Shown here piece after piece: positions 41,994-54,596 of a DNA stretch of 54,596 bases. How positions within the stretch are numbered: position 1 is the stretch's first letter; the number at the start of each line of letters is the position of its first letter. The stretch comes from Chitinophagales bacterium (GTDB lineage Bacteria > Bacteroidota > Bacteroidia > Chitinophagales > JADIYW01), in NCBI GenBank assembly GCA_044357355.1, contig JBIKPT010000003.1, positions 1 to 54,596 on the forward strand, in the 5' to 3' direction. Under the pieces are notes generated by a model that was not told the DNA's origin, searched no databases, and was given only the letters and a program-made list of their open reading frames with translations. The position numbers and the translations under genes were made by a program.

Positions 41994-44099
41994 ATGGCAC
42001 GCGATTTAAAATATACAAGAAACATTGGTATTGCAGCTCACATTGATGCAGGTAAAACTACAACAACAGAGCGTATTTTATACTATGCAGGTGTAAACCA
42101 CAAAATTGGTGAGGTGCATGATGGCGCGTCAACAATGGACTGGATGGTACAGGAAGCTGAGCGTGGAATCACCATCACTTCTGCAGCTACAACAGTTGGT
42201 TGGAAATACAGAGGTCAGGATTACCACGTTAATATTATCGACACGCCTGGTCACGTTGACTTTACTGTAGAGGTAAATCGTTCTTTACGTGTATTAGATG
42301 GTTTAGTTTTCTTGTTCTCTGCTGTGGACGGTGTTGAGCCTCAGTCAGAAACTAACTGGCGACTGGCAAACAATTATAATGTAGCTCGTTTGGGCTTCGT
42401 GAATAAAATGGACCGTTCCGGTGCTGATTTCTTAATGGTGGTTGAGCAGGTGAAAAAGATGTTAGGTTCTAACGCTGTTCCTTTGCAATTACCTATCGGT
42501 GCGGAAGATACATTTAAAGGTGTGGTAGATTTAATCAACTTCCGTGGTATCGTTTGGAACGATCACGACAGAGGTATGACATACAATGAAGTAGAGATTC
42601 CTGCTGATATGGTAGAAGAAGCTACTATGTGGAGAGAAAGATTATTAGAAGCTGTTTCTGAATACGATGATAAATTGATGGAGAAATTCTTCGAAGATCC
42701 AACATCCATCACAGAAAGAGAAATATTAGATGCATTACGTGCAGCTTGCTTAGATATGAAAATCGTTCCAATGTTGTGCGGTTCATCTTTCAAAGATAAA
42801 GGTGTCCAAACAATGTTAGACCTGGTAATGGAATTAATGCCATCACCAATGGATAGACCAAATATTATTGGAACACATCCGGATACTGGTGCAGAAATTA
42901 TTCGTAAACCTAGTTATGATGAACCATTTGCAGCTTTAGCATTTAAAATTGCTACAGATCCATATGTTGGTCGTTTAGCATTCACACGCGTGTATTCAGG
43001 TATGTTGGATGCTGGTTCTTATGTTTTGAACACAAGAAGCGGAAACAAAGAACGTATTTCTCGTATTTTCCAGATGCATGCTAATAAACAAAATCCAATT
43101 GATAAATTAGGAGCTGGTGATATTGGCGCAGTAGTAGGATTTAAAGACATCAGAACAGGTGATACATTATGTGCTGAAAGTAATCCAATCGTATTAGAGT
43201 CTATGGTATTTCCTGATCCGGTTATCGGTTTGGCGATTGAGCCTAAAACTCAGAAAGATGCTGATAAATTAGGTATGGCTTTGGGTAAACTGGCTGAAGA
43301 AGATCCAACATTTAAAGTAAAATACGATGAAGATACTGCTCAAACAGTAATCTCAGGTATGGGTGAGTTGCACTTGGAAATTATCGTTGACCGTTTATTA
43401 CGTGAATTCAAAGTAGAGTGTAATCAGGGTGCACCACAGGTAAACTATAAAGAAACAATTACACAAACGATTGATCATAGAGAAAAATACGCTAAACAAT
43501 CAGGTGGTCGTGGTAAGTTCGCTGATATTCAAATTGAAATCGGACCTGGTGATGAAGGTAAAGATGGCTTGACATTCGTTAATGATATCTTTGGTGGTTC
43601 AATTCCTCGTGAGTTCATTCCATCTGTTGAGAAAGGTTTCAAAGAAGCAATGAAATCAGGTGTTTTGGCTGGTTATGAAGTACCAAGTCTGAAAGTTCGT
43701 TTATATGATGGTTCATTCCACCAGGTGGATTCGGATTCATTCTCTTTCGAACAGGCCGCTAAATTTGCATTCCGTGAAGCTTGCAGAAAAGCAAACCCAA
43801 TCTTATTGGAGCCTATCATGAAACTGGAAGTTATCACACCGGAAGAAAATACAGGTGATGTAGTAGGTGACTTAAATCGTCGTCGCGGAATGATGGAAGG
43901 CATGGAAATGAAAAATAATGCAAATGTTATTAAAGCAAAAGTTCCATTGTCAGAGATGTTTGGTTATGTAACCGATTTGAGAACAATAACATCAGGAAGA
44001 GCAACTTCTATCATGGAATTCTCTCACTATGCTCAGGCTCCAAATAACATTACAGAACAAGTAGTATCAAAAGCAAAATCTAAAGTAAAAGCTGATTAA
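41994..44099 (+). CDS. fusA: Elongation factor G
   Basis: [41 protein letters not shown]; start ATG 41994. Confidence 0.99.
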
Positions 44100-44114
44100 T
44101 AGATAATATATATC

Positions 44115-44420
44115 ATGGCACAAAAAATTAGAATAAAATTAAAATCATACGACCACAATTTGGTAGACAAGTCTGCTGAAAAAATCGTAAAAACGGTACG
44201 CAGTGCCGGAGCAGTAGTTACTGGTCCTATTCCATTGCCGACCAACAAAAAGATTTTTACAGTATTGAAATCTCCGCACGTAAATAAAGTAGCGCGCGAG
44301 CAATTCAAATTATGTACGTATAAACGATTGTTGGACATCTATAGCGCAACACCTAAAACTGTAGATGCATTAATGAAATTAGAATTACCAAGTGGTGTTG
44401 ATGTAGAAATTAAAGTGTAA
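44115..44420 (+). CDS. rpsJ: 30S ribosomal protein S10
   Basis: [24 protein letters not shown]. Confidence 0.99.
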
Positions 44421-44426
44421 TAAGTC

Positions 44427-45047
44427 ATGGCAGGATTAATAGGAACAAAAATAGGTATGACCAGTATTTTCGGCGAAGGCGGTGCAATAATTCCTTGCAC
44501 GGTTATTCAGGCTGGTCCATGTGTTGTAACACAAAAAAAATCAAAAGATAAAGATGGTTACGATGCAGTACAATTAGGTTACGGTGATAAGAAAGAAAAA
44601 AACACTACAAAACCATTGTTAAAACACTTCGAAAAATCCGGAGCAGCTCCTAAAGCAAAATTAGTAGAGTTTAGCGGAATGGATAATTTGAATGTAGGTG
44701 ATGTGGTAACCTCTGAAATCTTGGCAGAAGGAGAAAAAGTAGCAATTATCGGTACTTCCAAAGGTAAAGGTTTTCAGGGTGTAGTAAAACGACACAACTT
44801 TGGTGGTGTGGGTGGTCAAACACACGGTCAGCATAATCGTTTACGTGCACCGGGTTCATTAGGAGCTTGTTCTACACCAGCTCGTGTTATGAAAGGCATG
44901 AAAATGGGCGGAAGAATGGGAACTGACAGAGTGAAAGAATTGAACATCAAGATTGTAAAATTAATTGCAGAAGAAAATTTAATCATCGTAAAAGGAGCTA
45001 TCCCTGGTCACAATGGTTCTTATGTAATAATCGAGAAGAAAAAATAA
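44427..45047 (+). CDS. rplC: 50S ribosomal protein L3
   Basis: [24 protein letters not shown]. Confidence 0.99.
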
Positions 45048-45048
45048 G

Positions 45049-45675
45049 ATGAAAGCAGAAGTATATAATATCAACGGACAAGCCACTGGTCGCAGCATCG
45101 AATTGCCTGAAGCAATTTTCGGCATCGAACCAAATGAGCATGTTATCTACTTAGCTGTTAAACAATATTTAGCAGGAAGAAGAAGCGGTACACATAAAAC
45201 GTTGGAAAAATCTGAATTATCGGGTTCTACCAGAAAGTTGCACAAACAGAAAGGTACCGGTGGATCAAGAAAAGGTAGCATCAAGAATCCATTATTTAAA
45301 GGTGGTGCACGTATTTTCGGACCGCGTCCAAGATCATATGATTTCAAGTTAAACAAAAAAGTAAAATCATTAGCGAAATACTCAGCATTATCAGTAAAAG
45401 CAGCTGGTAGTTCTATTAAAATTGTGGAAGATTTTTCTTTTGATGCTCCAAAAACTAAAGAATACATTAAATTCTTAACTGCATTTGGATTGGAAAATAA
45501 AAAATCATTATTGGTTTTACCGGAATTAAACGACAACGTTTATTTGTCAAGCAGAAATGTACAGGGAGCAGCTATCGCAATAGCAGAAAACCTGAATACA
45601 TATGAGATTATGAACAACAATACGATTTTGATTAGCGAGAAATCAATCGAAGCAATTGCAAATTCACAAAATTAA
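45049..45675 (+). CDS. rplD: 50S ribosomal protein L4
   Basis: GTHKT, QKGTGGSR, GGARIFGPRPR. Confidence 0.99.
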   Translation: MKAEVYNINGQATGRSIELPEAIFGIEPNEHVIYLAVKQYLAGRRSGTHKTLEKSELSGSTRKLHKQKGTGGSRKGSIKNPLFKGGARIFGPRPRSYDFKLNKKVKSLAKYSALSVKAAGSSIKIVEDFSFDAPKTKEYIKFLTAFGLENKKSLLVLPELNDNVYLSSRNVQGAAIAIAENLNTYEIMNNNTILISEKSIEAIANSQN

Positions 45676-45681
45676 TATAGA

Positions 45682-45972
45682 ATGGAAATTCTGAAAAAAC
45701 CTTTAATCACCGAAAAAGCATCTGCACTTTCTGAAAAGTCAGGCAAGTATACTTTTTTAGTAGAAAAGAAGGCAAACAAAGTAGAGATTAAGAAAGCGGT
45801 AGAGAAAATGTACGGCGTTAATGTTGAAGAAGTTAATACTCTTATTATTGCTTCCAAACCTAAAAACCGTAACACTAAAACCAGAGTAATCTCAGGAAGA
45901 AAAAGTAGCTACAAGAAAGCAATCGTAAAAGTAGCTGCAGGCGAAACAATTGATTTCTACAACGAAATTTAA
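45682..45972 (+). CDS. rplW: 50S ribosomal protein L23
   Basis: PLITEK, ANKVEIKKAVE, KKAIV. Confidence 0.99.
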   Translation: MEILKKPLITEKASALSEKSGKYTFLVEKKANKVEIKKAVEKMYGVNVEEVNTLIIASKPKNRNTKTRVISGRKSSYKKAIVKVAAGETIDFYNEI

Positions 45973-45991
45973 TTAAAAAGAAGTTTAAGCA

Positions 45992-46816
45992 ATGTCAACT
46001 AAAAAATACAATCCGATAACGCCCAGTTTGAGATACAGAATCTCTAACTCGTTCGCTGAAATTACGACAAATGTACCTGAAAAGTCTTTGTTAGCACCTA
46101 ACAGACGTTCTGGTGGTCGTAACCAAAAAGGTGAAATGACAATGCGTTACATTGGTGGCGGTCACAAAAAACAATATCGTATTATCGATTTCAAAAGAAA
46201 TAAATTCGATATTCCTGCTACCGTAAAATCTATCGAATACGATCCAAACCGTTCTGCATTTATCGCATTAGTGGTATATAAAGATGGTGAGAAAAAATAT
46301 ATCATCTCTCCGGAAGGTTTGAAAGTTGGTCAGGAAATCGTTTCAGGACAAAACGTACAACCGGAAGTTGGAAATACCTTGCCATTGGCAAACATGCCTT
46401 TAGGTTCTGTAATCCATAACATCGAATTACAACCTGGAAAAGGTGCATCTATCTGCAGAAGCGCTGGAACATTCGCACAGCTTTCTGGTAAAGACGGAAA
46501 ATACGTAAACGTGAAATTGCCTTCAGGCGAAGCAAGACAAATCTTAGGAACTTGTTTGGCAACAATCGGAACAGTTTCAAACTCCGATCACAGTTTGACA
46601 ATCCGCGGAAAAGCAGGTGCTTCCCGTTGGAAAGGAAGAAGACCTCGTACTCGTCCGGTTGTGATGAACCCGGTAGATCACCCGATGGGTGGTGGTGAAG
46701 GTAGAGCTTCAGGTGGTCACCCACGTTCTAGAAAAGGTATTCCTTCAAAAGGTTACAAAACAAGAACAAAAAATAAAGCATCGAATAAATACATCATTTC
46801 AAGAGCTAAAAAATAA
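45992..46816 (+). CDS. rplB: 50S ribosomal protein L2
   Basis: [34 protein letters not shown]. Confidence 0.99.
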
Positions 46817-46827
46817 TAGACAGTAGA

Positions 46828-47094
46828 ATGGCAAGAAGTTTAAAAAAAGGTCCTTACATAGCATACCATTTACAAGGTAAAGTGGACGCTATGAATGCCG
46901 CGAGTAAAAAAACAGTAATCAAAACATGGTCAAGAGCCTCTATGATTACACCGGAATTTGTAGGACATACATTTGCAGTACATAACGGAAATAAATTTAT
47001 ACCTGTGTACATAACAGAAAATATGGTTGGACATAAACTAGGTGAGTTCTCTCCAACCAGACAATTTAAAGGACATTCAGGTAACAGAAAATAA
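46828..47094 (+). CDS. rpsS: 30S ribosomal protein S19
   Basis: [23 protein letters not shown]. Confidence 0.99.
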
Positions 47095-47102
47095 ACTAAA
47101 CC

Positions 47103-47540
47103 ATGGGCGCAAGAAAAAGATTGGTAGCGGAAGCTAGAAAAGAAGCAAAAAAAACAGTTTGCGATGCGAAAGCAGTTGGTGTTCCAACTTCTCCACGTAA
47201 AATGAGATTGCTGGCTGATGTGATACGCGAAAAAAATGTACTGGACGCATTAAATATTTTAACGTTCTCTACAAAACATGCATCTAAAACATTAGAAAAA
47301 TTAGTTCGTTCTGCAGTAGCAAATTGGGAACAAAAATTTGAAACTAAAGCAGAAGACAGTGAGTTATTTATAAAATCTATCACTATTGACAGCGGTAGAA
47401 TGTTAAAACGATTTCAACCGGCACCGCAAGGAAGAGCATACAGAATTCGTAAACGTTCTAACCATATTACCTTGCAATTAGCAAGCCGTACATTGGCAAA
47501 CGCAGAAACAGTAACTGAAGATTCAACAAACGAAAATTAA
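47103..47540 (+). CDS. rplV: 50S ribosomal protein L22
   Basis: [27 protein letters not shown]; Bacteroidota N-terminal extension. Confidence 0.99.
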
Positions 47541-47555
47541 AATAAAAGATAATTA

Positions 47556-48368
47556 ATGGGTACTAAAGCAAATCCGATAGCAAATAGGTTAGGTATCATC
47601 AGAGGATGGGATTCTAACTGGTACGGCGGCAAAGATTTCAGCGATAAACTGATCGAAGATCAAAAAATTCGTAAATACTTAAACGCACGTATCCAGAAAG
47701 GCGGTATATCTAAAATAGTAATCGAAAGAACATTAAACAGAATCACGATTTCTATCAATACATCACGTCCTGGTATCATCATCGGAAAAGGTGGAAATGA
47801 GGTTGACAGAATCAAAGAAGAAATCAAGAAATTAACGAAAAAAGATGTTCAAATCAATATCGTTGAAATCAGAAGACCGGAAATAGATGCTGCTATCGTG
47901 GGTGAAACAGTTTGCAAACAATTAGAAGCACGTGTAAATTTCCGTCGTGCAGTGAAAATGGCAATCGCTTCAGCAATGCGTTTAGGTGTGGAGGGTATTA
48001 AAATTAAATGTTCAGGTCGTTTAGGCGGTGCTGAAATGGCAAGAAGTGAAGAATATAAAGAAGGTCGTACACCTTTACATACATTCAGAGCAGATATTGA
48101 TTATGCCTGGAAAGAAGCAGAAACCATCTACGGTAAAATTGGTGTAAAAGTGTGGATTTGTAAAGGTGAAATATTTACAAAACGCGATTTATCTCCAAAT
48201 ATCGGAATGGATGAAGGCAGCAAAAAAGGCAGCGACAGACGTGACGACAGAAGAGGTGGCGGCGACAGAAGAGATGACAGAAGAGGTGGTGGCGACAAAC
48301 GCGGCGGTGCCGGCGGTGGAAAACCAAGAGGAGAAAGAACTGAAAATAGAGGACCAAGAAAAAAATAA
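47556..48368 (+). CDS. rpsC: 30S ribosomal protein S3
   Basis: [43 protein letters not shown]; RG-rich tail. Confidence 0.99.
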
Positions 48369-48390
48369 TAACAAGAATAATTAAGGTGTC

Positions 48391-48816
48391 ATGTTACAAC
48401 CGAAGAGAGTAAAATTTAGAAGAGTTCACAAAATGAAAATGAAAGGCATTGCGTACAAAGGTTCGCAATTGTCATTCGGATCATTCGGTCTGAAATCCTT
48501 AGACGAAGGATGGTTAACCGACCGTCAGATTGAAGCAGCTCGTATCGCACTTACCAGACACATGAAACGTGAAGGTAAAGTATGGATTAACATTTTTCCG
48601 GATAAACCAATTACCAAAAAACCAGCCGAAGTTCGTATGGGTAAAGGTAAAGGTTCCTTAGACCACTGGGTTGCAGTAGTTAAGCCGGGAAGAATCCTTT
48701 TCGAAATAGAAGGAGTATCCAGACAAATTGCAGAAGAGTCTTTAAAATTGGCAGCACAAAAATTGCCGGTGTTAACCAAATTCATCGTAAGAAGAGATTA
48801 CGACGCAGCTAATTAA
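48391..48816 (+). CDS. rplP: 50S ribosomal protein L16
   Basis: MLQPKR.KFR, QIEAAR, RMGKGKG. Confidence 0.99.
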
Positions 48817-48831
48817 TAAAAATCAGAAACA

Positions 48832-49044
48832 ATGGCAGCAACAGTAGCATATAGCGAAATAACAGGATGGAGTGAAGAAGAGTTGAACAATGAATTGTCA
48901 GCATCTAAAATGAAATTGACAAAATTACGTTTCAACCACGCAATTACTCCGTTGGAAAACACCAATGTGTTAAAAGAAACAAAAAGACACATTGCACGTA
49001 TTCACACAGAATTGAAGAAAAGAAAATTATCTAAACAAGCATAA
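48832..49044 (+). CDS. rpmC: 50S ribosomal protein L29
   Basis: LRFNHAITPLEN, IARI.TEL; operon position. Confidence 0.97.
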   Translation: MAATVAYSEITGWSEEELNNELSASKMKLTKLRFNHAITPLENTNVLKETKRHIARIHTELKKRKLSKQA

Positions 49045-49048
49045 ATAA

Positions 49049-49327
49049 ATGCAAATGTCAACAGAGATAACAACAGAAAGACAATTAAGAAAAACAAGAG
49101 TTGGAGTAGTTTCTTCTAATAAAATGGAAAAAACAATAACAGTTTCTGTCGTTCGTAAATTGAAACATCCGAAGTACGGAAAATTCTTAAAGAAAACTAA
49201 GAAATTTCATGCACACGATGAAAAAAATGAATGCAACATCGGTGATACCGTAAAAATTATGGAAACACGTCCGTTGAGTGCAACAAAAAGATGGAGATTA
49301 GTAGAAATCGTTGAAAAGGCTAAATAA
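49049..49327 (+). CDS. rpsQ: 30S ribosomal protein S17
   Basis: [31 protein letters not shown] (start 49049 or 49055). Confidence 0.99.
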
Positions 49328-49329
49328 AC

Positions 49330-49698
49330 ATGGTACAACAAGAATCAAGATTAAGAGTAGCTGACAACAGCGGAGCCAAAGAAGTACTTTGCATCAGAGT
49401 ATTGAAAGGCACAAGAGCACGTTATGCATCTATCGGCGATAAGATCGTAGTGTCTGTAAAAGATGCAATGCCGGGCGGTAACGTGAAGAAAAAACAAGTA
49501 TCCAAAGCGGTAGTTGTTAGAACTAAAAAAGAAATCAAACGCAAAGACGGAACATACATTCGTTTTGATGACAATGCAGTAGTATTGTTAAACAATAACG
49601 ACGAGCCACGTGGCACACGTATCTTCGGACCTGTTGCAAGAGAATTGCGAGATAAAGATTTTATGAAAATTATTTCATTAGCACCAGAAGTTTTATAA
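49330..49698 (+). CDS. rplN: 50S ribosomal protein L14
   Basis: [27 protein letters not shown]. Confidence 0.99.
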
Positions 49699-49699
49699 C

Positions 49700-50038
49700 A
49701 TGAGCACACAAGCACAAAAGCGTTTTGCGCCGAAATTAAAAATAAAGAAAGGAGATACAGTTATCGTTATCACCGGTGAAGATCGTGGCAAAAGCGGTAA
49801 AGTACTGGAAGTATTTCCTAAAGAAAACAGAGCATTGGTTCAGGGTATCAGAATAATATCTAAACACACTAAACCAAATGCACAAAATCAACAAGGCGGA
49901 ATCGTGAAAAAAGAATCGCCTATCAACATCTCTAACTTAATGTTATCCGTTGGCGGAAACGCTACCAGAGTCGGCAGAAAAATAGAAGATGGTAAATCAG
50001 TAAGAATTGCAAAATCAACAGGAGAAATAGTTAAGTAA
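49700..50038 (+). CDS. rplX: 50S ribosomal protein L24
   Basis: [16 protein letters not shown] (KOW), GGI..KE.PI.ISN. Confidence 0.99.
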
Positions 50039-50589
50039 TGAGTTACATTCCTACATTAAAGAAAAAATATACTGCAGACGTAGTACCAGCCCTTATGGCA
50101 AAGTACAACTACAAGTCAGTAATGCAAGTGCCAAAATTATCCAAGATTGTAATCAATCAGGGTGTAGGTGCTGCCGTTGGAGATAAGAAATTAATAGACA
50201 ACGCGATCGATGAAATTTCAAGAATTTCAGGTCAGAAAGCAGTGGCTACCAAATCTAAAAAAGCAATCTCTAACTTCAAATTAAGAGAAGATTTACCAAT
50301 CGGTGTAAGAGTTACATTACGTGGCGAACGTATGTATGAATTCCTGGAAAGATTAATGGCGGTGGCATTACCACAAGTTCGTGATTTTAAAGGTATCAAC
50401 GACAAATCTTTTGACGGAAGAGGAAATTATACATTAGGTATTACGGAGCATATCATCTTCCCTGAAATTGATATCGATAAAATATCAAAAATCAGTGGTA
50501 TGGATATCACATTCGTTACGACTGCTTTGACAGATGACGAAGCTCATTCATTATTAAAAGAAATTGGTTTACCGTTTAAGAAAAAATAA
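50038..50589 (+). CDS. rplE: 50S ribosomal protein L5
   Basis: VPKL.KIVIN.G, FKLRE, FDGRGNY, GMDIT. Confidence 0.99.
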
Positions 50590-50591
50590 GC

Positions 50592-50861
50592 ATGGCAAAA
50601 GAATCAATGAAAGCACGCGACGCTAAGCGTTTAAAGTTAATCACTAAGTACAAAGCTAAGCGTGATCAGTTAAAAAAAGAAGGCGACTATGCAGCATTGG
50701 ATAAACTTCCGAAAAATGCTTCACCTGTACGCTACAGAAACAGATGTAAACTAACAGGTCGTCCTCGCGGATATATCGGTTTCTTCGGATTGTCCAGAAT
50801 ACAATTCAGAGATTTAGCAAGCTACGGTAAAATCCCGGGTTTAACCAAAGCAAGCTGGTAA
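50592..50861 (+). CDS. rpsN: 30S ribosomal protein S14 (89-aa, Zn-independent form)
   Basis: [35 protein letters not shown]; only one Cys. Confidence 0.99.
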
Positions 50862-50894
50862 GAGATAATAAATTATTCAAAAATAAAAGTGAAG

Positions 50895-50929
50895 GTGGGA
50901 AACTGAACTGAAACCGGTTTAAGTCTCAC
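50895..50929 (+). promoter_or_regulatory. Candidate S8-binding mRNA hairpin (16S helix-21 mimic)
   Basis: GUGGGAAACUGA-ACUG-AAAC-CGGU-UUAAGUCUCAC folds with the UUAAGUC/GAAACUGA core of the rRNA S8 site, 30 nt upstream of rpsH. Confidence 0.7.
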
Positions 50930-50959
50930 ATCTAAGCGATCTAAAACAAAAAAATAGAA

Positions 50960-51358
50960 ATGGTTACAGATCCAATAGCAGATTTTCTAACAAGAATCAG
51001 AAATGCACAACTCGCTGGTCACACCATCGTTGACATTCCTGCTTCTAACATGAAGAAAAAATTAACTGAAATCTTACATGATAACGGTTATATCTTAAAA
51101 TTCAAATTCGAAGAAGACGGTCCTCAGGGAACTATCAAGATTGCATTAAAATACAATCCTGAAACCAAAGAACCGGCTATCAGAGAACTGATCAGAATAT
51201 CAAAACCGGGTTTGCGTCGTTATGCACACGTGGCAGGTATTCCTAGAGTAAAAAATGGCTTAGGTATCGCCATCTTATCTACTTCAAGAGGAATCTTGAC
51301 GGATAAGCAAGCGAAAAACCTGAAAGTAGGTGGTGAAATTATTTGCATAGTATCTTAA
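50960..51358 (+). CDS. rpsH: 30S ribosomal protein S8
   Basis: [39 protein letters not shown]. Confidence 0.99.
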
Positions 51359-51368
51359 ATTAACAGGA

Positions 51369-51926
51369 ATGTCACGCGTAGGAAAATTACCAATAACAAT
51401 ACCGGCAAAAACAGAAGTAAGCGTTGCAGATAATAACGTTGTCACTGTAAAAGGGCCAAAAGGAACTTTAACTGAAAAAGTAGATAGAGATATCATCGTT
51501 AAAGTAGAAGATGGAAAAATCGTGTTCGAGCGTCCAACTGAACAAAAACGTCATAAAGCATTACACGGATTATACAGATCGCTGGTAAATAATATGATTG
51601 TTGGAGCTAGCGAAGGTTTCAAAAAAACATTAGACGTAGTCGGTGTAGGTTTTCGTGCAAGTAATCAGGGACAGTTATTAGAATTGTCTATTGGTTTCTC
51701 TCACCCGATTTATGTTATGTTGCCGGATGAAATCAAAGTTACAACGGAAACTGTAAAAGGACAGCCGCCACGTATCATCTTGGAAAGTACAGACAAACAA
51801 TTAATCGGACAGGTAGCTGCTAAAATAAGAAGCTTAAGAAAACCTGAACCATACAAAGGAAAAGGTATTAAATATACTGAAGAGATATTGCGTAAAAAAG
51901 CAGGTAAATCAGCAGGTAAAAAATAA
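51369..51926 (+). CDS. rplF: 50S ribosomal protein L6
   Basis: MSRVGKLPI, VKGPKG, GFSHP, RKPEPYKGKG. Confidence 0.99.
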   Translation: MSRVGKLPITIPAKTEVSVADNNVVTVKGPKGTLTEKVDRDIIVKVEDGKIVFERPTEQKRHKALHGLYRSLVNNMIVGASEGFKKTLDVVGVGFRASNQGQLLELSIGFSHPIYVMLPDEIKVTTETVKGQPPRIILESTDKQLIGQVAAKIRSLRKPEPYKGKGIKYTEEILRKKAGKSAGKK

Positions 51927-51977
51927 TCGGTAGGCACGCCAAATAACGTGTAACCATAAAAAATAAATAGTATTGTC

Positions 51978-52322
51978 ATGGCAGTAACAAATAAATTATC
52001 TCGCAGAGAAAGAATTAAATACAGTATCCGCAAAAAATTAAGTGGTACAGCTGGTCGTCCTCGATTAACTGTTTTCAGAAGCAACAGTGAAATCTACGCT
52101 CAGATTATAGATGATACAACTAAGAAAACAGTGCTTTCCGTATCTTCTTTAAAATCTACCGGAACAAAAACGGAGAAAGCAAAAGCAGTAGGCGCAGCAG
52201 TAGCAGAAAAAGCAAAAGCAGCAAATATAACTCATGTGGTTTTCGATAGAAATGGATTTTTATATCATGGCAGAGTGAAAGCTTTAGCGGATGCTGCAAG
52301 AGAAAATGGTTTACAATTCTAG
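51978..52322 (+). CDS. rplR: 50S ribosomal protein L18
   Basis: [36 protein letters not shown]. Confidence 0.99.
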
Positions 52323-52363
52323 TAAATACACATGGATGTGTGTATCAAAAAAATAAATTAGAT

Positions 52364-52885
52364 ATGTCAAAAGTAAAAGAAAATAAAGTTAGAGCAGCAG
52401 CTGAGCTGGAATTAAAAGAAAAAGTGGTGGGTATCCAGCGTGTAGCGAAAGTTACAAAAGGTGGTCGTACATTCAGCTTTTCAGCTTTAGTTGTCGTTGG
52501 TGATGGTAACGGAACAGTAGGTCATGGCTTAGGTAAAGCACGTGAGGTTCAGGAAGCAATCGCAAAAGGAATTGATGATGCTAAGAAAAATCTGGTGAAA
52601 GTTCCAATTTTAAAAGGAACTATTCCTCATGATCAGTTAGCTGAATTTGACGGAGCAAAAGTATTAATCAAACCAGCTTCTCATGGTACAGGTGTTATCG
52701 CCGGAGGTTCTATGCGTGCGGTATTGGAAAGTGCCGGAGTACATGACGTGTTGGCAAAATCATTAGGTTCTGCAAATCCGCACAATGTTGTAAAAGCAAC
52801 TATCAGTGCATTAACATTATTAAGAGATCCATTCCGTGTTGCAAAAGACAGAGGAATCAAACTTTCAAAAGTATTTAACGGCTAA
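52364..52885 (+). CDS. rpsE: 30S ribosomal protein S5
   Basis: [35 protein letters not shown]; start ATG 52364. Confidence 0.99.
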
Positions 52886-52889
52886 TATT

Positions 52890-53069
52890 ATGGCGAAGAT
52901 AAAAATCACTCAGGTTAAAAGTACCATCGACAGAAGTCAGCGTCAAAAAGATACCATCAAAGCATTGGGTATCCAAAAAGTAAACAGAAGCGTTGAAAAA
53001 GAAGCTACACCACAGGTATTGGGTATGGTAGCAAAAGTAAAACATTTAGTAACGGTAGAAAATATCTAA
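52890..53069 (+). CDS. rpmD: 50S ribosomal protein L30
   Basis: MAKIKITQVKS.I, T..ALG, GMV.KV.HLV; start ATG 52890. Confidence 0.98.
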   Translation: MAKIKITQVKSTIDRSQRQKDTIKALGIQKVNRSVEKEATPQVLGMVAKVKHLVTVENI

Positions 53070-53071
53070 TA

Positions 53072-53527
53072 ATGAGTATCAGTTTAAATAACTTAAAACC
53101 TGCTAAAGGTGCCACTAAAAATCGCAAACGTATTGCACGTGGTGAAGGTTCTGGTTCTGGCGGTACAGCCGGCAAAGGTCACAAAGGTGCAAAGTCTCGT
53201 TCAGGTTATAAATCAAAAAGAGGTTTTGAAGGTGGTCAAATGCCATTACAACGTCGTTTGCCAAAGCGTGGATTTAAAAACCCAAACAGAGTTGAATTCA
53301 GAACGATTAACTTGTCTGAATTAACAGCTTTAGCAGAAAAAAATAACATTACTGAATTCAATTTTGAAACATACAGAGCATTGAAATTAGTTAAAGCATC
53401 TGACAAAATTAAAGTTTTGGCAAATGGTGAACTAAAAGGTGCATTGAACATTTCAGCACATGCTTTCAGTGATAAAGCAAAAGAAGCAATTGAAAAAAAT
53501 AGTGGTACAACCACCCTTATAGCATAA
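53072..53527 (+). CDS. rplO: 50S ribosomal protein L15
   Basis: LKPA.G, GHKGAKSRSG, GFEGGQMPL.RRLPK.GF. Confidence 0.99.
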   Translation: MSISLNNLKPAKGATKNRKRIARGEGSGSGGTAGKGHKGAKSRSGYKSKRGFEGGQMPLQRRLPKRGFKNPNRVEFRTINLSELTALAEKNNITEFNFETYRALKLVKASDKIKVLANGELKGALNISAHAFSDKAKEAIEKNSGTTTLIA

Positions 53528-53531
53528 GCTT

Positions 53532-54596
53532 ATGAAGCAGTTTTTCGATACATTAAAAAACATCTTCAGCATAGAAGACTTAAGAAAAAGAATATTCTTG
53601 ACCTTAGGTCTTATTTTTATCTATCGACTGGGATGTTTTGTGGTATTACCTGGAGTAGACCCTATCAGCGTAGCCAGTCAGGACACTAGCGCCAAAGGGC
53701 TCTTTCAAATCTTTGATTTATTTGCAGGTGGTGCTTTTTCTAAAGCATCCGTTTTTGCATTAGGTATTATGCCTTACATCTCTACGTCAATTGTAATGCA
53801 ATTATTGACTTTAGCAGTTCCTTATTTCCAGAAATTACAAAAAGAAGGAGAAAGCGGTCGTAAAAAAATTACCCAATACACAAGATACGGTACAGTAGCA
53901 GTAACAGCATTTCAAGGTTTCGCCTATGTGAAGTTCTTATACTCACAAAATATTGTGTCTGCAGAAATTTCTCCTGCTTTATTTTCCTTGTCAACCATGA
54001 TTATTCTAATTGCAGGTACTATTTTCGTAATGTGGTTAGGTGAGCAAATACAGGAAAGAGGTTTAGGAAACGGAACGTCATTAATTATCATGGCTAATAT
54101 TATTGCAAGACTTCCGGCATCTATCTGGGCAGAAGCAAAAGCAAGAGCCATAACAGGAAGCGGTATATTGATGCTTGTTTTAGAATTAGCTATTCTTGGT
54201 TTGGTCATTATCGCTACGATCATGTTAATTCAGGCAATTAGAAAAGTACCTTTGAGTTATGCTAAGCAAATGTCTGGTGGAAACAACGCATATACACAAC
54301 GTCGTGGTTTCTTACCATTAAAAGTTAATATAGCTGGTGTAATGCCTATCATCTTCGCACAGGCATTTTTATTCATACCAGGTACAATAGCTCAATTATT
54401 TCCGGATAGTTCAGCTTCAGGATTTTTACGTCAATTAACAGACTTTACATCATTACCATACAACATTGTAATGTTTTTAATGGTGGTTTTATTTACATAC
54501 TTCTATACAGCATTAATAATGAATCCTGTACAGATGGCAGATGATTTAAAAAGAAACAGCGGGTTTATACCAGGTGTAAAACCAGGTGCTAACACG
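53532..54596 (+). CDS. secY: Preprotein translocase SecY, 3'-truncated by window edge
   Basis: Not in the ORF track (no stop in window); translates MKQFFDTLKNIFSIEDLRKRI..., FALGIMPYIS.SI..QLL, EGESGRKKI.Q.TRY, GLGNGTSLII, GVMPIIFAQA. Confidence 0.98.
   Translation, partial: MKQFFDTLKNIFSIEDLRKRIFLTLGLIFIYRLGCFVVLPGVDPISVASQDTSAKGLFQIFDLFAGGAFSKASVFALGIMPYISTSIVMQLLTLAVPYFQKLQKEGESGRKKITQYTRYGTVAVTAFQGFAYVKFLYSQNIVSAEISPALFSLSTMIILIAGTIFVMWLGEQIQERGLGNGTSLIIMANIIARLPASIWAEAKARAITGSGILMLVLELAILGLVIIATIMLIQAIRKVPLSYAKQMSGGNNAYTQRRGFLPLKVNIAGVMPIIFAQAFLFIPGTIAQLFPDSSASGFLRQLTDFTSLPYNIVMFLMVVLFTYFYTALIMNPVQMADDLKRNSGFIPGVKPGANT

Follow-up and report, generated by a model that had tools for sequence, protein, structure and literature searches.

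The window, a stretch of 54,596 nucleotides from a Chitinophagales bacterium, carries a ribosomal protein gene cluster in which rpsN (S14) is followed on the same strand by rpsH (S8) (Table 1). These two genes are separated by a spacer of 98 nt, which is the largest gap from rpsL (41032) to secY. The second-largest gap, between rplF and rplR, comprises 51 nt, the remaining gaps do not exceed 41 nt, and rplF starts 10 nt past the rpsH stop codon. A preliminary description of this DNA had named the rpsN-rpsH spacer as the only long gap in the operon, which agrees with these values, and had placed in it a hairpin as candidate S8 autoregulatory element. It had also stated that the mRNAs are devoid of Shine-Dalgarno sequences. 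Indeed, neither GGAG nor GAGG was found within 20 nt upstream of the start codon in any of the 24 cluster genes checked (0/24), whose leaders are A-rich. In Bacteroidia, initiation has been described to depend on mRNA structure and upstream adenines and not on Shine-Dalgarno sequences (PMC6847099).

The S8 protein encoded here is 42% identical to that of E. coli and has retained the C-terminal RNA-binding region including the Ser-Thr-Ser residues; its best match among solved structures had an E value of 1e-54. In four studies, RNA libraries yielded contigs that span rpsN, the spacer and rpsH without a break, with zero to six differences. Since such contigs can contain DNA, they are weak evidence for an RNA element; transcript ends, strand and level are beyond their reach, and they were not counted as evidence for expression or processing.

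Two other observations were made in the cluster. The rplF-rplR spacer (window 51927-51977) harbors a small hairpin (CACG..CGTG), and most relatives (L005-L019) possess a hairpin at this position whose sequence differs between species (e.g., GATACT..AGTATC and TTTCGA..TCGAAA). It is followed by a conserved ATTATTGTC directly in front of the rplR ATG; in one species this spacer is only 11 nt long. The rpsC gene (window 47556-48368) encodes an S3 protein of 270 aa that ends at its C terminus in a low-complexity tail with many Arg, Gly and Asp residues and a repeated 14-residue unit.

Table 1. Positions of genes, blocks and motifs in and around the rpsN-rpsH spacer (window coordinates)
Feature	Position	Strand	Remarks
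rpsN (S14)	50592..50861	+	CDS ending with TAA; from ORF list; tblastn query
Variable A/T-rich spacer, 5' of the element	50862..50886	+	length not conserved; insertions of 50-70 nt in two species
Whole conserved RNA element, 59 nt	50887..50945	+	alignments A2 and A3; covariance model R1
Invariant 5' block GUGAAGGUGGGAAACUGA	50889..50906	+	one A/G column variable in 28 distinct sequences
Hairpin of the preliminary description (register 1, helix 21-like)	50895..50929	+	all pairs present in the sequence; -11.5 kcal/mol
GAAACUG	50899..50905	+	equals 16S G639-G645 with A for U641; invariant in 28/28
Variable apical stem-loop	50907..50918	+	4 pairs, loop of 4-6 nt with free sequence
Near-invariant 3' block (U)UAAGUCUCACAUCUAAGCGRUCUAAA	50919..50945	+	alignment A3
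UAAGUC	50920..50925	+	equals 16S U594-C599; AAGUC invariant in 28/28, U50920 replaced by A in 3/28
GRUCU	50938..50942	+	predicted partner AGAUC 50968-50972 (rpsH codons 3-5); inferred pairing
A-rich linker to rpsH start codon	50946..50959	+	sequence variable, length 11-14 nt
rpsH (S8), 132 aa	50960..51358	+	ORF list
Core map, 3' strand			C599=C50925, U598=U50924, G597=G50923, A596=A50922, A595=A50921 (bulged), U594=U50920
Core map, 5' strand			G639=G50899, A640=A50900, 641=A50901, A642=A50902, C643=C50903, U644=U50904, G645=G50905

The hairpin could be followed pair by pair in the sequence. Its lower part extends from G50895-C50929 to A50900-U50924 and is followed by the unpaired nucleotides A50901 and A50902. 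The upper part consists of the pairs C50903-G50923, U50904-A50922, G50905-U50920 and A50906-U50919 with a bulged A50921, and the structure is capped by four pairs (ACUG/CGGU) and the loop AAAC (50911-50914). Every pair drawn in the preliminary description is of the Watson-Crick or G-U type, and the distance of 30 nt between the end of the hairpin and the rpsH AUG was also given correctly. The element itself had been underestimated. The stretch under conservation comprises 59 instead of 35 nt and ends 14 nt in front of the AUG; its 3' block includes a 16-nt tail past the hairpin, which holds two AUCUAA/RUCUAA repeats. Taken by itself, the folding energy of the spacer is only modestly unusual (MFE -14.9 kcal/mol, z = -2.3, equalled by 2 of 200 shuffles).

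Similarity to S8-binding sites of 16S rRNA and E. coli rplE mRNA

That S8 regulates the spc operon by feedback is a textbook case, which to our knowledge has been described solely in E. coli and close relatives. The S8 site of 16S rRNA resides in helix 21, whose numbering in the preliminary description proved accurate: in E. coli rrsH, UUAAGUC occupies positions 593-599 and GAUACUGG positions 639-646. The 16S rRNA of the organism itself (locus L001) contains AUAAGUC and GAUACUG. At 12 of the 13 core positions the element equals this rRNA, the sole difference being A50901 in place of U641, and the match to helix 21 of E. coli likewise amounts to 12/13. Element and rRNA site have the same pairing partners, an equivalent of the bulged A595 and helices of five to six pairs on both sides. 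They differ in that the element exhibits A for U641, lies in an mRNA spacer and has its strands in reversed order, so that the loop closes the opposite end. The 35-nt hairpin presumably corresponds helix for helix, in reversed strand order, to the minimal S8 fragment of 16S rRNA (588-603/635-651). The site belongs to the mRNA of the operon that encodes S8, is situated beside the rpsH start and resembles helix 21 in sequence as well as in pairing. The presence of U at 641 in the organism's own rRNA was counted against an S8 operator; with A at this position, the mRNA may compete less strongly than the rRNA.

To what extent such a match might arise by chance was estimated with the pattern GAAACTG-N4-34-AAGTC. 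With both strands counted, the window contains it once, where 0.13 occurrences were expected, and 12 of 100 shuffled sequences had it at least once; scaled by simple arithmetic to one 98-nt spacer, the chance is approximately 1e-4. Even when any base was admitted at 641 and the gap was extended to 4-120 nt, the same site was the sole match in the 54.6-kb window. The invariant tail did not disclose further rRNA mimicry, only common shared words such as GGGAAACUG.

The regular expression also recovered the E. coli S8 operator, which served as positive control. The E. coli rplE gene starts with AUGGCGAAACUG; here GAAACUG (+6 to +12) is located 5' of AAGUC (+80 to +84) and A-A is found at 641/642. 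The two cores are identical at 12 of 13 positions, differing by C+79 versus U50920. The preliminary description had emphasized the reversed strand order of the hairpin. This is right with respect to the rRNA and not novel, as the E. coli rplE operator shows the same order; the permutation therefore has a precedent in the spc operon of E. coli. Binding of S8 to the latter is documented (PMC4176348, PMC3616713, PMC10931766), and a crystal structure of the operator with S8 is cited as Merianos 2004. Two of these papers confirm that the core nucleotides contact S8: the A-A at 641/642 is described as bulged A8 and A9 of the S8-interacting RNA in PMC3616713, and the triple A+80-(A+81-U+11), an 'N641-A642' and the stacking of the S8 Ser-Thr-Ser on A642 are given in PMC4176348.

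The element and the E. coli operator thus have in common the GAAACUG/AAGUC core, the strand order, A-A at 641/642 and a location in the spc cluster, as well as an invariant core combined with a variable distal or apical stem (PMC3616713). Their positions are not the same, as had been stated before. The element lies in the rpsN-rpsH spacer, whereas the E. coli operator overlaps the rplE AUG, and at the rplE start of the window (50038) an S8-like motif pair was not found, the sole pair in the window being that at 50899-50925. The element is a compact hairpin of 35-59 nt that stops 30 nt upstream of the AUG without overlapping it; its E. coli counterpart is a long-range helix of about 80 nt within coding sequence. 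The E. coli operator controls rplE and rpsN, whereas the element would control rpsH and later genes, and it would do so in a translation context lacking Shine-Dalgarno sequences, unlike the operator of E. coli. The E. coli-type operator has been reported to be narrowly distributed to Gammaproteobacteria (Fu et al. 2013, PMC3616713). Since the lineages are unrelated and the element is absent from sister clades (see below), it is not homologous to the E. coli site. The identity of the cores is probably due to convergence, the element being independent in origin. The agreement with the E. coli operator includes an A that is absent from the rRNA and would make this a clean case of convergent molecular mimicry.

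Conservation, distribution and relation to known leaders

S8 neighbourhoods were taken from 41 related genomes; one locus (L025) was left out as it gave no S14 hit. In the 19 loci with the element, the rpsN-rpsH spacer has a length of 89-169 nt. Nucleotide diversity was determined for 18 genomes, with the 25 nt upstream of the element aligned from the right and the apical part defined as the 13 nt 50907-50919. The 5' block yielded a pi of 0.006 (1/18 sites variable) and the 3' block a pi of 0.036 (3/26 sites variable). By comparison, four-fold degenerate sites of rpsH gave 0.364 (36/41 variable), the apical 13 nt 0.358 (10/13 variable) and the 25 nt upstream 0.377 (24/25 variable). Both blocks evolve 10- to 60-fold slower than the neighbouring neutral-like sites. 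Thus, the hairpin first noticed as a candidate belongs to a real element, whose near-invariant blocks lie amid freely varying neighbours and are under strong purifying selection.

Pooling of copies from genomes, MAGs and metagenomes resulted in 58 sequences, 28 of which are distinct. The AAGUC/GAAACU core, whose conservation in relatives had been proposed as a check, is present in all 28, and the element is absent outside one genus. Covariation, which had been suggested as another check, was detected for three apical pairs (50907-50918, 50908-50917 and 50909-50916) that change on both sides (28 cells; 28 sequences), the middle one being a mismatch in 12/28; the basal stem never covaries. In register 1, 97.0% of the cells are paired (19 pairs counted, five of them from a predicted helix at the start codon), compared to 16-48% when the partner was slid. 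The covariation score was not reached by any of 500 shuffles.

These data also bear on the possibility that the spacer contains a DNA-level signal, i.e. an internal promoter, a terminator or a protein-binding site. The spacer is A/T-rich, and weak sigma-70-like matches lie nearby. The apical stem, with its compensatory changes, points to an RNA structure instead, and the RNA-library contigs, though weak evidence, run through rpsN, the spacer and rpsH. Terminator-like sites were not found in the region 50500-51100, where the hairpin is followed by CAUCUAAGCG, which is not of the terminator type. The motif TAnnTTTG, the -7 promoter consensus of Bacteroidetes, was not found on the + strand of the rpsN-rpsH spacer. 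We therefore consider a DNA-level signal very unlikely.

Another explanation for the invariance of the 5' block might be a five-codon upstream open reading frame, GUG AAG GUG GGA AAC UGA (50889-50906), which controls rpsH by translation and reinitiation. This frame is open in all 28 sequences, with AAG to AGG as the sole change, and is preceded by A-rich sequence resembling the initiation regions of the cluster. Its start would be GUG, though, and all of its synonymous positions are invariant, which indicates a constraint on the RNA rather than on a peptide. Moreover, neither the invariant 3' block nor the apical covariation is explained by a short peptide. Control of rpsH by such a frame is hardly probable.

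The distance between element and AUG is held at 11-14 nt and that on the rpsN side is free, implying that the element is functionally tied to the rpsH start. Two species, represented by L015 and L016 (genomes G019 and G015), carry an extra 50-70 nt downstream of rpsN, ahead of the element, so that their spacers reach 169 and 149 nt, respectively. The inserts share the motif CAAAGAGTC; neither the element nor its spacing from the AUG is affected.

Covariance model R1 gave one match of 77-90 bits in each of 26 out of 33 genomes of the genus, which rules out a repeat. Seven genomes remained without a match; three are without an rpsH locus (83-89% complete) and four have a short spacer, so that the element is present in 26 of the 30 genomes holding rpsH. 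In the four loci of the same genus without the element, the spacer measures 28-32 nt and S8 is 77-80% identical. Six loci from other families of the order, with spacers of 10-61 nt, are likewise without it. R1 gave no matches in 12 genomes of five other genera of the family, nor in 144 genomes outside the genus out of an order sample of 151 genomes (82 genera, 26 families). Relatives without the element did not reveal a motif in operator order within 3.4 kb of rpsH, only scattered matches in rRNA order.

The phylum was searched for the core in operator order within 20-50 nt of the codons for the S8 N-terminus, using 401 genomes. Real matches before S8 came from the genus with the element, and none from the approximately 398 genomes outside it; matches in G178 and G380 are due to chance, as neither adjoins an S8 gene. 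The exact pattern was found at 25 loci in about 185,000 species genomes, 24 of which represent the element in front of rpsH, and the remaining one (L065) was set aside as a chance match. The 24 loci belong to uncultured MAGs labelled Chitinophagales, Sphingobacteriales, Saprospirales or Bacteroidota and to one Paceibacterota contig. The latter (L046), a 4.8-kb contig of a MAG labelled Candidatus Paceibacterota, contains a Chitinophagales-type rpsN-element-rpsH arrangement with matching flanks and is probably mis-binned. A scan of metagenomes yielded no loci when the run of N was fixed and 17 when the gap was variable, of which 15 are real and two (L069, L078) are chance matches; new variants of the basal stem did not emerge.

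In a tree of S14 and S8, which rests on two small genes adjoining the element, the 18 carriers group together as a single clade (100/99 support), to which the four non-carriers are external. This monophyly suggests a single gain, which would have taken place in the common ancestor of the carrier clade within an uncultured Chitinophagales genus. The element is lineage-specific and, contrary to the assumption of the preliminary description, not Bacteroidota-wide. Restriction to a lineage is the usual pattern of ribosomal protein leaders (PMC3616713, PMC7247131). The absence from close relatives, which evidently manage without the element, was nevertheless counted against an S8 operator.

In agreement with the preliminary description, no leader at this position was found in Rfam or in the literature searched. 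Rfam 15 gave no match at E <= 10 in the window section 44000-54596, including the spacer 50862-50959. It also assigned no family to the E. coli S8 operator (L040, NC_000913, rplE start), so that the absent match says nothing about the class of S8 operators. The experimentally proven E. coli operator thus appears to be without a covariance model in Rfam 15. The full-text literature searched, consisting of main texts, did not disclose any S8 leader outside the E. coli type. Eckert and Weinberg (2020, PMC7247131) described leaders of Bacteroidia and Flavobacteria for S4, L13, S15, S16 and L19, which are contained in Rfam; none of the 20 leaders of this paper is for S8, none being listed in its Table 1, and rpsH and uS8 are never mentioned in it. 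Like those leaders, the element is a short, lineage-restricted structured RNA beside a ribosomal protein gene of the same phylum; none of those leaders is for S8 or located upstream of rpsH. In Flavobacteriales, bS21 (rpsU) is autoregulated through a Shine-Dalgarno sequence (PMC9976891). In both cases a ribosomal protein would control its own synthesis in a phylum lacking Shine-Dalgarno sequences; the mechanism for bS21 relies on the availability of the anti-Shine-Dalgarno sequence on the ribosome, whereas the element would mimic an rRNA site bound by the protein. According to a review of 2024 (PMC10931766), spc regulation outside E. coli and Vibrio is unknown and phylogenetic work has stalled. 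What is new here is probably the position, architecture, lineage and independent origin of the element, while the protein, the mimicry and the core were already known.

Registers of the basal stem and proposed control of rpsH

By the nearest-neighbour model, a basal stem with its register shifted by two nucleotides is more stable (-14.9 versus -11.5 kcal/mol). This alternative comprises the pairs G50899-C50927 (P 0.78), A50900-U50926 and A50902-U50924 (P 0.85), and further outside AGGUG 50893-97/CAUCU 50929-33 and GU 50889-90/GC 50936-37. It abolishes the equivalents of 599-639 (G50899-C50925) and 598-640, which retain probabilities of 0.12 and 0.10, respectively. The same model assigned a P of only 0.05 to pair 597-643 of the real E. 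coli helix 21 and of 0.05-0.21 to pairs of the E. coli operator, and is hence a poor judge of S8 sites. Since variation is missing from the basal stem, the alignment fits one register as well as the other, 97.0% and 97.5% of the cells being paired in register 1 and in the alternative, respectively (28 sequences). Two rare changes affect this stem: U50926 to G (1/28) breaks a basal pair in both registers, and A50893 to G (2/28) keeps a pair in the alternative one. The former was counted against an S8 operator, as was U50920 to A (3/28), by which the equivalent of 594-645 is broken.

Eight invariant nucleotides on the 5' side and sixteen on the 3' side extend beyond the hairpin and exceed what a minimal S8 site requires. 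The alternative register accommodates them better, so that another function or ligand has to be considered. The element may be a conserved structured RNA whose true fold is the alternative register (50889-50937) and whose S8-like loop is coincidental, acting for instance by determining RNase processing or stability, by enhancing translation, by insulating rpsH from rpsN and so uncoupling the two, or as a site for another protein. Besides the otherwise unexplained flanks, the gain of 3.4 kcal/mol and the preserved pair at A50893 speak for this explanation. Coincidence is difficult to reconcile with the core, which directly in front of rpsH matches the S8 site at 12/13 positions with the right partners and the bulged A (chance about 1e-4), is as similar to the proven E. 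coli operator, and stays invariant in 28/28 while the neighbouring stem varies. Furthermore, a plain stabiliser hairpin needs no invariant internal loop, and the rplF-rplR hairpins change their sequence freely. We therefore regard another role as rather unlikely.

Taken together, the comparison of sequences points to the 59-nt element as a cis-acting S8 operator, an interpretation to which we assign a probability of roughly two thirds; binding of S8 and repression are inferred. S8 present in excess over free 16S rRNA would bind to the GAAACUG/UAAGUC internal loop, the mimic of helix 21, and would thereby lower initiation at the rpsH AUG 30 nt downstream. Where initiation relies on mRNA structure and upstream adenines, and not on a Shine-Dalgarno sequence, the leader must stay open (PMC6847099). 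A likely route is that S8 stabilises the hairpin together with an adjoining GRUCU:AGAUC helix, by which the start codon would be closed into a loop. Expression of rplF and later genes may follow that of rpsH by translational coupling.

If this assumption is true, the element would represent the first candidate for an S8 operator from outside Gammaproteobacteria; it occupies another gene junction, in a phylum that initiates translation without Shine-Dalgarno pairing. Its gain would be recent enough to allow comparison with sister lineages that lack it, and the convergent core suggests which features S8 truly requires. From a practical point of view, its host range is narrow and uncultured.

The putative start helix formed by GRUCU (50938-42) and AGAUC (50968-72) has a predicted pair probability of 0.85-0.91 and would place the AUG within a loop of 25 nt. 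In all 28 sequences the A or G at 50939 pairs with U50971 (13 A-U, 15 G-U). Since the protein dictates the coding side, the pattern at 50939 is compatible with the predicted helix and does not prove it. When one or the other register was imposed, neither the predicted accessibility of the start region nor the GAUCU:AGAUC helix changed; this was counted against an S8 operator, as was the lack of overlap between hairpin and start codon.

The two registers could also be states of one and the same operator. As GGUGGGAAA lies opposite UCUCACAUCU, two helices might form, of which S8 would capture the helix 21-like one. The free RNA would then adopt the more stable register making use of the invariant flanks, and the shift, along with the GRUCU:AGAUC helix around the AUG, would turn off initiation without a Shine-Dalgarno sequence. 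Given the unchanged accessibility in the model, this protein-driven switch is doubtful and is kept as a speculation.

A pairing imagined between AUCU 50930-33 and AGAU 50980-83 received a probability of only 0.00-0.02 and was discarded. The invariant tail (50930-50945) contains a direct repeat of the form AUCUAA..GCG..RUCUAA, the second copy of which is the only one predicted to pair with the coding region. In the first codons of rpsH, AGAU occurs twice (50968-71 and 50980-83), corresponding to the two Asp codons of the sequence DPIAD.
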